DNA of 64,000 bases from a virus (taxonomy: Duplodnaviria > Caudoviricetes): the IMG/VR virus record IMGVR_UViG_3300037312_000330, positions 128,001 to 192,000 of that record; one strand, written 5' to 3'. Of the stretch, positions 4,744 to 16,183 are shown one piece after another. The notes beneath the pieces were generated by a model, which worked only from the letters and a program-made list of their open reading frames with translations, had not been told where the DNA came from and ran no database searches. The position numbers and the translations under genes are program-made. Position 1 is the stretch's first letter; the number at the start of each line of letters is the position of its first letter.

Positions 4744-6642
4744 ATGGCGAAGAAGTACGACACCGAAGATATTGAACGGTACGCTGGCCTCAAGGGAATC
4801 CGCAAGAAACCCACTCCGTATATCGGCCCGAACGACGGCGACGGTCTATGGACTTGTATCCGAGAGCCACTCGACAACTGCGTCGACTTGATTCTCAAGG
4901 GCATTGGGAACAACTTGGCGCATCTGATGTTCGATCCTGAACCCAACGTGTACTGGATCATCGACGCTGGTCCTGGGTTCCCGGTTGGAACTAAAGTGTT
5001 CGAGAATGAACACGGCCAGAAGGAGAAGCTGAACACCTTCTACGTGGCAACCGGCCTGACGCACGCTGGTTCCAACTTCAAGGGAAACGCCACTTCACGC
5101 GGAACGCACGGCATCGGTATCAAGGCCACCAATGCGATGTCCAAGCGTTTCCAGGTGTGGACCTGCCGTGATGGTCAGTGGTGGACCATCAAGTACAAGG
5201 ACACCGTCAAGCAAGGTGAACCTGAGAAATGCAAGGCGCCGAAGCTGCCACATGGCATCAAGGTCAAGAAGGGTAGTGTCATCCGTGCGGAACCCGACTT
5301 GTCCTTGTTCACCAAGGATGCCAAGATCGATGCGTCTGCCATCCAATCGTGGTGTGAACTCACAGCCTATCTTGTTCCTGGCATCCAGGTCAAGTTCACC
5401 AACCGTAAGGGCAAGACGTTCGAGCTCCTGCACAAACGTGGCCCTATTGAGTTCATCGAGAAGCGGGTATCAGAACTCAAGTGCAACGTACAAAAGAAGA
5501 TGTTCCAACACCACAGCCAGCTTATGGATGTGGTGATCGCGTTTACGGACGCGGATGGCGATCAGATTTCTGCCTACACCAACGGCCTCCACAACAAGGA
5601 CGGCGGTGAACACGTGACGGCTGTCATGGACGGGATGTTCAAGAGCTTGAAACCGTTCTGGCCGAAGACACGCGGCAAAGACAAGAAGAAAGAAGCACCG
5701 TTCAACATGAACGACCTGCGCGATGGTCTGGTTGGTCTCGTGAATGCCAAGGTCGCGGCACCGAAGTTCAACAACCAACCCAAGGACAAGTTGGTTGACG
5801 ATCGCGTGTATCCGGAAGCTTACCCGGAGATGGCACAGGCATGGACCAAATTCTGGGAAGCGAACAAGTCACTGGCAAAGAGCATCGTGGATCGTGCCAT
5901 GGAGCTCAACAAGGCGACCACCAGCTTCAAGGCTGACAAGAAGCTGATCAAGAACGTGAACAGTGCCAGCAAGGGTCTGAAAACCAAGCTGTCTGGCATC
6001 GTAGGTAACGCTCCGGTGGAGAAGCGTGAACTCTTCATCGTAGAAGGCGATTCAGCGGCGGGCACTGCAAAGCGTGCTCGCGACAAGAGCTTCCAAGCCA
6101 TCTATGCTTTGCGCGGCAAACCATTGAACGCAATGGAAGCGCAACAGGCGAAGGTTAACAACAATGCTGAACTCGTTGGTCTGCTAGCGGCAATCGGTGT
6201 TAAGCTGGACGCCAAGGACACTGAGAAGTCGCTCAAGGCAATGCCCTACGGCAAGATCATCAAGCTTGCCGACCCGGACGTTGATGGCAAACACATCAAC
6301 GTGCTGATCGATGGCAACATCTGGAAGTATGCACCGCAGGTCATCACGAGTGGTCGCATGTACGCGGTGGTCGCTCCACTGTACAAGTGTCTGCACAAAG
6401 GCAAGACGTACTTCGGCATGACCAAGGAAGAGATCTACAAGAAGACTGGCAGTCAGAAGGTGGACATCCAGTACATCAAGGGATGGGGTGAGATCAACGA
6501 AGAAGACATGTCCGTGGCTCTCGATCCAGGTGCACGTAAGCTCATCCGAATCATGCCTCCTTCCAAGAAGGAAGCCGAGGAGTTCCAAGCTCTGCTCGGC
6601 AAGAACGTGGCGTACAGGAAGAAGTTGCTTGGCGTAGAATGA
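4744..6642 (+). CDS. gyrB: Type IIA DNA topoisomerase, ATPase/TOPRIM subunit (GyrB/ParE-like)
   Basis: GHKL motifs REPLDNCVD, DAGPG, GTHGIGIKATNAMS; TOPRIM ELFIVEGDSA, LRGKPLN, DPDVDGKHI. Confidence 0.95.
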   Translation: MAKKYDTEDIERYAGLKGIRKKPTPYIGPNDGDGLWTCIREPLDNCVDLILKGIGNNLAHLMFDPEPNVYWIIDAGPGFPVGTKVFENEHGQKEKLNTFYVATGLTHAGSNFKGNATSRGTHGIGIKATNAMSKRFQVWTCRDGQWWTIKYKDTVKQGEPEKCKAPKLPHGIKVKKGSVIRAEPDLSLFTKDAKIDASAIQSWCELTAYLVPGIQVKFTNRKGKTFELLHKRGPIEFIEKRVSELKCNVQKKMFQHHSQLMDVVIAFTDADGDQISAYTNGLHNKDGGEHVTAVMDGMFKSLKPFWPKTRGKDKKKEAPFNMNDLRDGLVGLVNAKVAAPKFNNQPKDKLVDDRVYPEAYPEMAQAWTKFWEANKSLAKSIVDRAMELNKATTSFKADKKLIKNVNSASKGLKTKLSGIVGNAPVEKRELFIVEGDSAAGTAKRARDKSFQAIYALRGKPLNAMEAQQAKVNNNAELVGLLAAIGVKLDAKDTEKSLKAMPYGKIIKLADPDVDGKHINVLIDGNIWKYAPQVITSGRMYAVVAPLYKCLHKGKTYFGMTKEEIYKKTGSQKVDIQYIKGWGEINEEDMSVALDPGARKLIRIMPPSKKEAEEFQALLGKNVAYRKKLLGVE

Positions 6643-13926: not shown

Positions 13927-14322
13927 ATGAAACTGTCCGAAGTCACATCACTTTACTCACAGTCACCGAACGAGGTCTGGTCCATTCTCCTCAAGAATGG
14001 AATGGAACTTGTTACTCAACTACGCGTCGAGCAAGTTCTGCAAGCAGAGGTCGTATCCGGGAAAGTTCCCGAAGGACCGAGGAATAGCGCGACTGTCTAC
14101 TTGTCCAAGCCATTCATTGTGCGTGCTGTCACTATTCCAATGCAGCAAGGGCAGAACATCCACATCCAGACAACTGCTCAATGTATGCCTCTGGTAATGA
14201 AAATGCAACAGCCGGAGTTGCCAATCGATCCAGAAGACATTTGGGTAATGACTACTGCAAGTAAAGCATCTAGCGACGAGTATCTCCAGCAAACATCAGG
14301 CATCCTAATCGGGAAGCATTAA
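13927..14322 (+). CDS. Hypothetical protein, possible Sm-like fold
   Basis: WSILLKNGMELVTQL resembles Sm1; C-terminal YLQQTSGI. Confidence 0.55.
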   Translation: MKLSEVTSLYSQSPNEVWSILLKNGMELVTQLRVEQVLQAEVVSGKVPEGPRNSATVYLSKPFIVRAVTIPMQQGQNIHIQTTAQCMPLVMKMQQPELPIDPEDIWVMTTASKASSDEYLQQTSGILIGKH

Positions 14323-14323
14323 C

Positions 14324-15100
14324 ATGCAAGAATTCGAAATCGCAGGAACTAAGTTCGAATTGGTGTTGGATGATGGTGTTTTCAACGCCAACCCGTCTTC
14401 GCTTCTCACGTTGCCTACTGCACTCATCTGCGGAATGAGCAGCGCCAGCTACCAATTCCCAGAAGAGAAGCAAGCGTTACTTGACGCCCTTTCACCGTTC
14501 CAAATCGTTTCCAAGTATTGGAGCACGATGGCCATCAACGAATTGGTGCTTCTAGATCCTAATGTCGAGACCATTGTGTTTGTTGGTTCCTGGTACGGTC
14601 AACAGTCGGCAATGTCATCACGCTTCGTGCGAGACTATCGTGATCACAGAATCTATCTTGTTGACAAGGATCCAGTGGCTAGTCGTATCGCACAGTATTT
14701 GATCAAACACGACAGTTATCATCGACGATGCGAACCAGTTGTGTGGATGAAAGACATCTACGATCTTAGTTCTGAATTCCCTCCGGACACGTTGTTCGTG
14801 TGGAACGGTTTGGAGCACTTTGACAACAACGACGTCGAAAAGTTTCTGGAACAAAACACAGAATCAACATTTCTGTTCCAGTCTACTTCGATGGAAGCCA
14901 AGGATCACGCCAACTTGGCGAGGGACATAGAAGATCTCCTAGCACCTCTGCCTGCTGGATGGGACGCAGGAGTGGTGTATCGTGGAGAACTCCAGTGTGA
15001 GTTGGGGTCCAGGTACATGCTCGCAGTGCGCGGTCCTGGTTGCGACGAACTGGAAGTCGAATCCGATGAGAACGACGGTCTCGATGGTCCAAACAGATGA
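14324..15100 (+). CDS. Putative SAM-dependent methyltransferase-like protein
   Basis: IVFVGSWYG (motif I-like), IYLVDKDP, KDIYDL, NGLEHF. Confidence 0.55.
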   Translation: MQEFEIAGTKFELVLDDGVFNANPSSLLTLPTALICGMSSASYQFPEEKQALLDALSPFQIVSKYWSTMAINELVLLDPNVETIVFVGSWYGQQSAMSSRFVRDYRDHRIYLVDKDPVASRIAQYLIKHDSYHRRCEPVVWMKDIYDLSSEFPPDTLFVWNGLEHFDNNDVEKFLEQNTESTFLFQSTSMEAKDHANLARDIEDLLAPLPAGWDAGVVYRGELQCELGSRYMLAVRGPGCDELEVESDENDGLDGPNR

Positions 15101-15116: not shown

Positions 15117-15150
15117 TGCGGCCACAAAGCGCCGTTCAACAAGGTGAGAA

Positions 15151-15408
15151 ATGTCCGAAAACAATCATCTACCGTTCATCAGGAACGAAATGCTCCAAAA
15201 GCTTCAGGACAATGGCACAGTGTCTGCCGTTTTTCTGAAGAACGGGATCCGTCTTATCGGGAAGATCATCAGATTCGACTCTGAAGACATTCACATAACT
15301 AGTCCGTCAGATCAACTAGGGATGTCAGTGTCGCGAGACGCGATTGCCACAATCGGAGCCTATCATCAAACTGCAAACAAGGAGACCTCTGGGATGAACA
15401 AACGCTGA
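15151..15408 (+). CDS. hfq: Hfq-family (Sm-like) RNA chaperone, divergent
   Basis: VFLKNGIRLIGKIIRFD...VSRDAIATI aligns with Hfq IYLVNGIKLQGQIESFD...VYKHAISTV. Confidence 0.8.
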   Translation: MSENNHLPFIRNEMLQKLQDNGTVSAVFLKNGIRLIGKIIRFDSEDIHITSPSDQLGMSVSRDAIATIGAYHQTANKETSGMNKR

Positions 15409-15460
15409 CGGACTGAACTCAATCACATCTCCCGCCAGTGAGCTCCAGATGCCTCGCCAG

Positions 15461-15484
15461 TAGGCACAAAGCTGCCTATTTTTT
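15461..15484 (+). terminator. Rho-independent terminator
   Basis: TAGGCA-CAAAGC-TGCCTA followed by T6. Confidence 0.65.
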
Positions 15485-15498
15485 AAGCAATCAGGGGC

Positions 15499-15527
15499 TT
15501 GCCAAGGCAAACGGCATATGGTACAAT
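15499..15527 (+). promoter_or_regulatory. Host sigma70-type promoter
   Basis: TTGCCA-N17-TACAAT with extended -10 TG. Confidence 0.75.
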
Positions 15528-15634
15528 AATGGTACGGTTGGGCTGAACCCGCGTACCGTAGGCACAGCCATTGCCGTAACAACCTATCCACAATGTGTCT
15601 AACCCCCAATCAATAGGAAGAAGGACTTTCAAAC

Positions 15635-16183
15635 ATGAAAGCGACTGCGAATATCTCCAAGCTCCTGAAGGAACTCGTTGGTGCCGTCAAGGCCTCGGCC
15701 AAGGAAGCGAAGCAAGCGAGCAAGCGCGCCGAAAAGGCTGAAGCACGTCTGGAGAAACTGACCTCCGACAAGCCTGCGAAGGCCAAGAAGGAAAAGGCCG
15801 GAAAGAAGTCCAAGAAGGACAAGGCTGCCAAGAAGGCCGAGAAGGCCGCAGCCAAGAAAGGTAAGAAGGACAAGAAGGCTGCGAAGAAGGAGAAGCAGAA
15901 CAAGAAGGCTGGCAAGAAGGCGGCTGACGAAGACGAAGAGGAAACGGCAGCCCCGGCCAAGAAGTCCAAGAAAGCCAAGAAGGAGAAGTCTGGCAAGAAG
16001 GACAAGAAGGCTGCGAAGAAGGCAGGCAAGAAGTCCAAGAAGGAAGGCAAGAAGAGCAAGGACGAAGGTTCCGGCTCCGAAAAGCCCGCTGGAAAGAAAG
16101 CCGCCGCCAAGAATGGCAAAGGTGGCAAGAAGGACGCCAAGGAAGGTAAGAAGGCTGAGAAGTCTTCGTGGCTGGACGCCTAA
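15635..16183 (+). CDS. Lys/Ala-rich histone H1-like DNA-binding protein
   Basis: Very high K/A content, KKAAKK repeats; own promoter and terminator. Confidence 0.75.
   Translation: MKATANISKLLKELVGAVKASAKEAKQASKRAEKAEARLEKLTSDKPAKAKKEKAGKKSKKDKAAKKAEKAAAKKGKKDKKAAKKEKQNKKAGKKAADEDEEETAAPAKKSKKAKKEKSGKKDKKAAKKAGKKSKKEGKKSKDEGSGSEKPAGKKAAAKNGKGGKKDAKEGKKAEKSSWLDA

Follow-up and report, generated by a model that had tools for sequence, protein, structure and literature searches.

A strongly diverged Hfq-family protein of uncultured jumbo phages appears to keep the distal purine pocket while losing the canonical proximal and rim residues

The open reading frame at positions 15151..15408 (+ strand, 85 aa) of the window, by which we mean the whole 64,000-nucleotide stretch of viral DNA analysed here, encodes a genuine, strongly diverged Sm protein of the Hfq family, and we regard both its homology and its fold as settled. 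In many bacteria, small-RNA regulation centres on Hfq, and phages use or exploit the Hfq of their hosts. At the level of sequence, the uridine-stacking pocket for RNA 3' ends and the arginine patch on the rim have been lost across the whole clade of related proteins, while the distal face has retained its hydrophobic purine pocket (an aromatic residue at position 25, L26, N28, G29, I30, a basic residue at 31, L32 and T61, in the numbering of E. coli Hfq). We propose that the protein would act as a single-face binder of purine-rich RNA and not as a matchmaker between sRNA and mRNA, a reading to which we assign a probability of about 0.5.

Membership in the Hfq family emerges most clearly once the relatives of the window protein are taken together. 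On its own, the protein matches the Pfam Hfq family PF17209 with 24.4 bits and an E value of 2.3e-5, under the 27-bit cut-off, and against the PDB sequences its best match is B. subtilis Hfq at E 0.045, all 26 of the 26 weak matches being Hfq; identity to canonical Hfq in a MAFFT alignment is 20-31%. When 1.84 billion representatives were searched exhaustively with phmmer, 23 matched at E<1e-3, most of them proteins of 64-90 aa. We built a clade profile from 21 of these, and the residue counts given throughout refer to these 21 sequences. Searched with HMMER, the profile retrieves 35 solved Hfq sequences ahead of anything else, at E values from 1e-15 to 4e-9, E. coli Hfq being among them with 1.3e-15, and PF17209 is matched by every one of the 21 members, with a best E value of 4.7e-17. 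Among neighbours in the ESM Atlas we find clusters of Hfq and of Hfq_1 (PF21979), some of them cyanobacterial. Hfq_1 itself is matched at E<=0.01 by four of the 21 relatives, and its score for the window protein (12.6 bits, E 0.16; cut-off 27 bits) amounts to no match. A search for the Pfam family Phage_Hfq (PF23874) found it neither in the 249-kb genome, covered in full at E<=1, nor in the window protein at E<=10; one relative in the clade matches it weakly (0.0082).

The predicted structure points the same way. An AlphaFold2 (AF2) model computed from the 21-sequence alignment reaches a pLDDT of 81.9 and shows Sm topology, with an N-terminal helix (residues 9-21), five strands (24-29, 34-42, 46-50, 58-61 and 65-70) and then a short C-terminal tail; it supersedes a poor model from the single sequence, with pLDDT 51. 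In a Foldseek search of the PDB with the alignment-based model the best 50 matches are all Hfq, with target-normalised TM-scores (TMt) of 0.76-0.91 and, for most of these 50, an rmsd of 1.1-1.4 Å over 62-64 residues. A complex prediction with four copies gave a median of 0.37 against a mark of 0.42, a value that speaks neither for nor against a ring. Within the Sm1 core, G29, G34 and D40 are invariant in all 21 sequences (G32, G37 and D43 of the window protein) and N28 is present in 16. The Hfq-type Sm2 motif [Y/F]KHAI is absent, the window protein reading S-R-D-A-I in its place, with A58 and I59 mostly kept in the clade. The claim of the first-pass annotation that this is a phage Hfq has thus been borne out by the profile, Pfam and Foldseek matches alike, and a non-Sm fold, the outcome that it had named as speaking against its claim, did not occur.

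We take Met1 as the start of the protein, and not the M14 chosen by the gene caller, because a Shine-Dalgarno-like AAGGTGA (15141..15147, + strand) lies 3 nt 5' of the ATG at 15151 and because the first 13 residues are conserved. The public gene call and its database copy (P0001) begin at Met14 and yield a product of 72 aa. The nearest orthologues, P0002 and P0028, keep this stretch, with MSENN(H)LPF at the N-terminus, and differ there by synonymous changes and an in-frame indel of 3 nt.

The window spans bases 128001-192000 of a 248,884-bp IMG/VR record that CheckV rates as 100% complete, and its source is therefore a jumbo phage. A search of sequencing runs for the stretch in the window found it in two rhizosphere metagenome DNA runs, with no RNA run among the listed holders. 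A comparison of portal proteins places phiRSL1, BcepSauron/Saruman, Motura and BCSR5 nearest among cultured phages, with 37-39% identity; Burkholderiales are the hosts of all of them. The clade as a whole is one of uncultured jumbo phages of soil and rhizosphere, distant kin of the phiRSL1-type phages.

How widespread are such proteins? In a profile search of 5.8 billion proteins about 14 clade members appear at E<1e-19, followed by canonical Hfq, and the JGI pipeline already labels two clade members "sRNA-binding regulator protein Hfq". The clade profile has no match in the genomes of phiRSL1, BcepSauron, Motura and BCSR5, where the positive control, the phage's own genome, gives 1.9e-31. A megablast of the region and a tblastn of the Hfq-like protein against 50,697 phage records gave no relevant match. 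With E. coli Hfq as the tblastn query, the same 50,697 records yielded no convincing Hfq from a cultured phage, and what it matched were bacterial contigs, Staphylococcus assemblies, one contig from a gut metagenome and two records from Acinetobacter. Near-exact scans for peptide words of the five closest sequences, a procedure of low sensitivity, found no relatives in the contigs of IMG/VR viral and GTDB genomes. A literature search found neither the phrase 'phage-encoded Hfq' nor a paper describing one. Phage-encoded Hfq is almost absent from the literature and the cultured phage genomes that we searched.

We now turn to the residues that bind RNA in canonical Hfq. Positions were mapped to E. 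coli K-12 Hfq both by MAFFT and by HMMER profile alignment, and the two agree; for the assignment to faces, the cited positions follow the literature and the remaining residues were placed by Hfq topology and not from a measured hexamer. At the proximal site, the base stacks on F42, with Q8, K56 and Q41 contacting the base and H57 the ribose, and this site has been described as common to all Hfq homologues (PMC10628458). In the window protein the corresponding changes are Q8 to R11, Q41 to S44, F42 to E45, Y55 to S61, K56 to R62 and H57 to D63, and on the rim R16, R17 and R19 have become Q19, D20 and G22. All the substitutions listed in the first-pass annotation were confirmed, and they turn out to be a trait of the whole clade of 21 sequences and not a peculiarity of one. 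Position 8 keeps its glutamine in a single sequence and is methionine in 12; position 42 is never aromatic (Glu in 11, Ser in 6), position 55 is aromatic only once, and position 57 is never histidine, being Ser in 11 and Asp in 6 (S or D in 17/21). That annotation had also scored K56 as lost, and here we differ: the position is basic in 19 of the 21 sequences (Arg in 15), including R62 of the window protein, so that the proximal loss holds across the clade for Q8, F42, Y55 and H57 but not for K56. We observe in passing that the original scoring was uneven, K56R having been called lost and K31R kept, when both are conservative. As for the rim, the reported loss of its arginines is confirmed for the window protein, and in the clade position 16 is basic in 12 sequences, position 17 acidic in 13 and basic in two, and position 19 basic (Lys) in six.

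Since the proximal positions that have changed also show a fair degree of conservation (M8 in 12/21, E42 in 11/21, position 57 S or D in 17/21), what has happened to this face looks like remodelling as much as loss. These partly conserved new residues hint that the face may have acquired a new function rather than having none.

The distal face tells a different and more mixed story. In Hfq the first adenine site of this face is formed by Q52, the backbone of Q33, and L32, with Q52 bridging to the second site, which comprises T61, N28, L26, I30 and Y25 (PMC10628458). Going from E. coli to the window protein, Y25 becomes F28, N28 stays as N31, G29 as G32 and I30 as I33, K31 becomes R34, and L32 stays as L35. 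Across the clade, position 25 is aromatic in 19 of 21 sequences with His in the other two, L26 is found in 20, N28 in 16 and G29 in all 21, position 30 is Ile in 18 and Val in 3, position 31 is basic in 20, and position 61 carries Thr in 17 sequences and Ser in the remaining 4. Two further changes at the distal site were absent from the first-pass annotation, namely Q52 to M58 and Q33 to I36. Q52 is never kept: the position is hydrophobic (L, I, M or V) in all 21 sequences. Moreover, compared with canonical Hfq the β3-β4 loop has 2-6 additional residues, mostly with a conserved Gly inside it, and in 16/21 a lysine has been gained at position 27 in place of valine. In the Gram-positive proteins a single additional residue in this loop, along with small substitutions, shifts the distal motif from A-A-N to A-L (PMC10628458). 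The earlier statement that the distal face is kept thus stands for the hydrophobic purine pocket (Y25, L26, I30, T61, N28 and G29) but not for position 52 or for the loop. Because Q52 is lost in every sequence and the loop is longer, A-R-N specificity cannot be assumed, and with a hydrophobic residue at position 52 throughout the clade, distal binding itself may be changed or weak.

The distribution of charge has also shifted. Net charges in the clade range from +1 to +4 at the distal positions, from 0 to +2 in the tail, from -3 to 0 in the proximal set and from -2 to +2 at the rim; the values for E. coli Hfq are +3 at the rim and -3 in the tail. The C-terminal tail of the phage proteins has 10-20 residues and a basic tip (..KR, ..RRN, ..RKGS; ..NKR in the window protein). 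The Sm core is about neutral, with a mean of +0.6, so the phage protein is not a strongly basic RNA binder.

What might such a protein do? [quoted passage not shown] The rim arginines catalyse the formation and exchange of base pairs (PMC3753642). Since Q8, F42, Y55 and H57 are lost, we do not expect canonical binding of sRNA U-tails by the phage protein, and since the rim arginines are lost, we expect it to be a poor annealer; with neither the U-tail site nor the rim arginines, classical sRNA-mRNA matchmaking is not expected. As regards the original suggestion that such a subunit could bind mRNA leaders but not sRNA tails, its second half agrees with the residues of the tail site, while distal A-R-N binding cannot simply be presumed given Q52 and the loop. 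In our preferred reading, the single-face binder, the protein would assemble as an Hfq-type ring, and the ring would bind single-stranded purine-rich or A-rich RNA, mainly through its distal face. Its distal specificity would probably be unlike the A-R-N preference of E. coli Hfq, with Q52 replaced and the β3-β4 loop longer. Most likely the ring would coat or hold particular mRNA segments during infection, leading to altered translation or decay, and it could also compete with host Hfq for those segments.

If this phage had special A-rich leaders, one might hope to see them in its genome. We compared the 45-nt leaders of 288 crudely called genes with shuffled sequences, which is a weak test. 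Runs of three or more ARN are present in 18.4% of the leaders as against 13.8% in shuffles, and runs of four or more in 3.1% as against 2.6%; for AAN the same leaders show no excess over shuffles. In phiRSL1, which is without the Hfq-like gene, the excess is similar or larger. This crude test gives no support for special A-rich leaders in this phage.

The genomic setting of the gene is conserved. DNA is available for eight loci (the window, L002/L003, L004-6, L007, L008, L009, L010 and L014), with one more known by its gene list only, and the gene order is common to all of them as far as each contig reaches. It begins with topoisomerase II subunits, the large and small subunits of RNR and, in most loci, a gene of ~95-131 aa; continues with ThyX (in some loci only), a gene of 228-261 aa and the Hfq-like gene; and ends, after a spacer of 177-339 nt, with a very basic, Lys/Ala-rich gene of 135-182 aa and further shared genes. 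For the downstream 340-aa neighbour we found no relevant match in the 50,697 phage records. Orthologues of the Hfq-like protein share 23-60% identity among loci. Against the nearest orthologue, dN/dS is 0.29 with dS about 1; in most other pairs the synonymous sites are saturated. A dN/dS of about 0.3, together with the same position in at least eight diverged loci, indicates that the gene is under purifying selection.

A terminator-like hairpin at 15459..15484 (+ strand), with an 8-bp stem AGUAGGCA/UGCCUAUU, a 6-nt loop and a T6 tract, lies 51 nt 3' of the stop codon of the Hfq-like gene and has a folding energy of -11.4 kcal/mol. The sequence TAGGCA..TGCCTATTTTTT is shared by the window and L004 and mostly kept in both L002 and L007, whereas L008 does not conserve it; a consensus terminator scanner did not call the hairpin. 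Beyond it, at 15499..15527 (+ strand), lies a sigma-70-like extended -10 promoter (TTGCCA, 17 nt, TG-n-TACAAT) that belongs to the next gene. It has 10/12 consensus matches plus the TG and occurs just once in the window, against a chance expectation of 0; its -10 block TGnTAyAAT is present in 5/5 aligned loci, and the -35 TTGCCA in the window, L002 and L004. Transcription of the unit that includes the Hfq-like gene probably stops at the hairpin. Because the hairpin with its T-run is followed by this conserved promoter, the Hfq-like gene appears to close a nucleotide-metabolism unit, and, as the last gene before the hairpin, its product would apparently be made together with the nucleotide-metabolism proteins of the phage.

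We also considered the 131-aa product of 13927-14322 as a second Sm protein. It has an LLKNGMEL-like stretch in common with the Hfq-like protein, and in the Atlas it falls among DUF6561 clusters from phages, of which a few bear the tag Sm_like. Comparison with the Hfq clade by hhalign gives a probability of 1-7%, and there is no match in Pfam or the PDB; these results do not support the candidate, and a hetero-ring of the Hfq-like protein with the 131-aa product is likewise not supported by the profile comparison.

The conserved gene order could point to another role for the remodelled proximal site, in which M8, E42, R56 and S/D57 would bind some other ligand and the ring would present RNA or a nucleotide to the putative enzyme encoded directly upstream. 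In the window this neighbour (14324..15100, + strand) is a 258-aa protein resembling class I SAM-methyltransferases. A gene of 228-261 aa stands directly 5' of the Hfq-like gene in seven of the eight loci with DNA, that is, in all those with a readable upstream flank, with gaps of 9-50 nt in four loci (the window, L008, L010 and L014), and we have seen that the changed proximal positions are not random. The 258-aa protein falls among methyltransferase clusters in the ESM Atlas, with TM-scores of 0.63-0.64 to models of RsmG/GidB-type rRNA methyltransferases, and a tblastn search of the 50,697 phage records gave only a weak match, to a 'putative methyltransferase' of Pelagibacter phage Mosig. 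However, it matches neither Pfam nor PHROG, the methyltransferase-like assignment is a structural and language-model lead only, and adjacency within a long co-directional nucleotide-metabolism operon is weak evidence for a partnership. We consider this role unlikely.

Of similarly low probability, in our view, is that the protein is a protein-binding Sm scaffold, a ring that has largely given up RNA binding and docks on a phage or host protein, as reported for cyanobacterial Hfq. The loss of the canonical proximal residues resembles cyanobacterial Hfq, to which Bøggild et al. (2009, FEBS J 276:3904), as cited in PMC6202907, ascribe altered RNA-binding properties. The near-neutral core would suit a scaffold, as would the presence of Hfq_1 clusters, some cyanobacterial, among the language-model neighbours. 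On the other hand, the clade profile lies far closer to canonical Hfq (1e-15) than to the Anabaena Hfq 3hfn (4.7e-4), and the window protein itself falls short of Hfq_1, as noted above. Moreover, the distal purine pocket and the basic residues at positions 27, 31 and 56 are conserved, which nucleic-acid binding explains more easily than a scaffold does.

Less probable again, and in our judgement doubtful indeed, is that the phage protein is a poison subunit that joins newly made host Hfq in mixed hexamers, leaves their proximal ring and rim incomplete and so cripples host sRNA regulation, a possibility raised in the first-pass annotation. Pairing of the β4 and β5' backbones does most of the work of keeping Hfq rings together, and Burkholderiales, the hosts of the closest cultured relatives, carry canonical Hfq (P0051 is the Hfq of Cupriavidus). 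By prediction the Sm core has nearly the same shape as that of Hfq, and one defective subunit would presumably break the six-fold ring of U-binding sites. Against this stands the low identity to canonical Hfq already given, and the divergence among the phages, whose proteins keep motifs of their own, does not suggest that they have been tracking a host interface. Furthermore, host Hfq is largely pre-assembled as stable rings (PMC3710371), so only new synthesis during the lytic cycle would be affected.

That the frame is a chance ORF or a decaying gene without function, as a single-sequence score under the Pfam cut-off and a single-sequence fold of low pLDDT might suggest, is very improbable given its fixed position in at least eight diverged loci, its dN/dS, the invariant G29, G34 and D40 and the confident alignment-based fold.

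Beyond the single-face binder, one may speculate further that jumbo phages keep an Hfq reduced to its mRNA-binding face as a decoy, which would sit on poly(A) tails or on mRNA sites rich in A or in purines but could not recruit sRNAs. We regard this as rather unlikely, though its consequences would be considerable. If true, host sRNA regulation and decay dependent on Hfq and RNase E would be uncoupled from transcripts during infection, and the decoy would represent a general, so far undescribed viral strategy against post-transcriptional control by the host. Judged by the residues of this clade, both the site for sRNA tails and the patch for annealing have been lost in evolution, with most of the mRNA face left in place. 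Should the protein bind RNA, it would offer a handle on distal-face-only binding in cells and on how large phages rewire RNA control; should it not, it would be a second example, after the cyanobacteria, of an Hfq ring put to another job.

How, then, does the phage protein compare with known systems? It is a phage-specific, new version of a known kind of protein and, by its residue pattern, a putative natural separation-of-function Hfq. With canonical Hfq (E. coli, P. aeruginosa, Caulobacter; PF17209) it shares the Sm fold, the Sm1 core, a basic residue at position 56 and the purine pocket on the distal side, but it is without Q8, F42, Y55, H57 and the rim arginine patch, and has a hydrophobic residue in place of Q52 and a lysine at position 27. 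The canonical tail is long with an acidic tip, whereas that of the phage proteins is 10-20 residues long with a basic one, and canonical hfq adjoins miaA/hflX, whereas the phage gene sits in a nucleotide-metabolism operon. The Gram-positive proteins (B. subtilis 3hsb/3ahu, S. aureus 1kq1, Listeria 4nl2) are the best single-sequence matches in the PDB. They likewise have an incomplete rim patch (RKEN in B. subtilis versus RRER in E. coli) and an insertion in the β3-β4 loop, the latter accompanying the change of distal motif mentioned above, but they keep the proximal pocket (Q8, F/Y42, K56, H57; PMC10628458), which the phage clade does not. Cyanobacterial Hfq (Anabaena Asl2047, 3hfn; Synechocystis Ssr3341) likewise has non-canonical residues at its RNA sites, according to the work cited in PMC6202907, and so illustrates that canonical residues of the RNA sites can be lost from an Hfq ring; it is only distantly related to the phage clade, which, unlike cyanobacterial Hfq, keeps the canonical distal NG-I-K/R-L motif. 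Finally, there are other Sm barrels encoded by phages, namely PF23874 and the 'Hfq-like domain' proteins of mycobacteriophages, and viral structures in BFVD match the model of the phage Hfq weakly, at 7-22% identity.

Immediately upstream of the Hfq-like gene lies a gene on the plus strand (14324-15100) for a methyltransferase-like protein of 258 aa, and the two genes adjoin one another in all seven of the loci whose upstream flank is readable. Searches of this protein against Pfam and PHROGs returned nothing; in the ESM Atlas its nearest structures belong to class I SAM methyltransferases, with RsmG/GidB-like models among them (TM ~0.63), and a motif-I-like VFVGSWYG followed by LVDKD can be seen in its sequence. 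The conserved gene that precedes it and follows the RNR small subunit (13927-14322, plus strand) encodes 131 aa, with a stretch, LLKNGMELV, that mimics the Sm1 strand of Hfq. Profile comparison of this protein with the Hfq clade was negative (1-7% probability), and in the ESM Atlas it falls beside DUF6561 clusters of phages, of which a small number bear an Sm_like (PF16243) label. In the public annotation this protein is called from residue 26 onward.

Among the other metagenomic Hfq-like proteins, three (P0011, P0032 and P0033; 152-156 aa) carry two tandem Hfq domains in a single chain, with partly degenerate Sm2 motifs, and would be predicted to assemble as a trimer-of-dimers ring. A sister group (P0017, P0019 and P0022; 136-197 aa) has long, low-complexity N-terminal extensions and has also lost the proximal-face residues F42, Y55 and H57 (motif IYLQNGIRIIGR...ITRSLVSSV); the DNA behind this group is one short contig of 867 bp.

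Two further genes deserve mention. In a related phage contig, the topoisomerase II (GyrB-like) gene (L009:1-1728) contains an intein (PF14890, Intein_splicing), and no intein was seen in the PHROG match of the window's own copy (4744-6642). Near the start of the window, on the plus strand (58-1515), is the gene for a functionally uncharacterised protein of 485 aa (phrog_1735), which is far more conserved than the remainder of the window, occurs in 478 phage records and shares 58% identity with proteins of Caulobacter phiCbK-type phages.

Downstream, the Hfq-like gene is separated by a conserved spacer (15409-15634) from a gene for a Lys/Ala-rich protein (15635-16183, plus strand). Within the spacer a terminator-like hairpin with T6 (15459-15484) is followed by a strong predicted sigma-70-like extended -10 promoter (15499-15527), the sole instance in the window. 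Directly after it, at the expected transcript start, sits a stable hairpin (15529-15559; part of a -17.6 kcal/mol fold), and 3' of this hairpin runs the conserved leader of the Lys/Ala-rich gene, ~100 nt in length. The Lys/Ala-rich gene itself keeps its position in all related loci (L004:1430-1939, L008:8483-8968, L009:9496-9960 and L010:9420-9827). Across loci its product has 135-182 aa, 23-39% Lys, 13-27% Ala and a net charge of +25 to +41; the helical N-terminus is conserved, as is a C-terminal S/D-W-L-D/N motif. Neither Pfam nor PHROG gave a match for this protein, which resembles histone H1/AlgP and may serve the phage in organising a nucleoid or in coating DNA.
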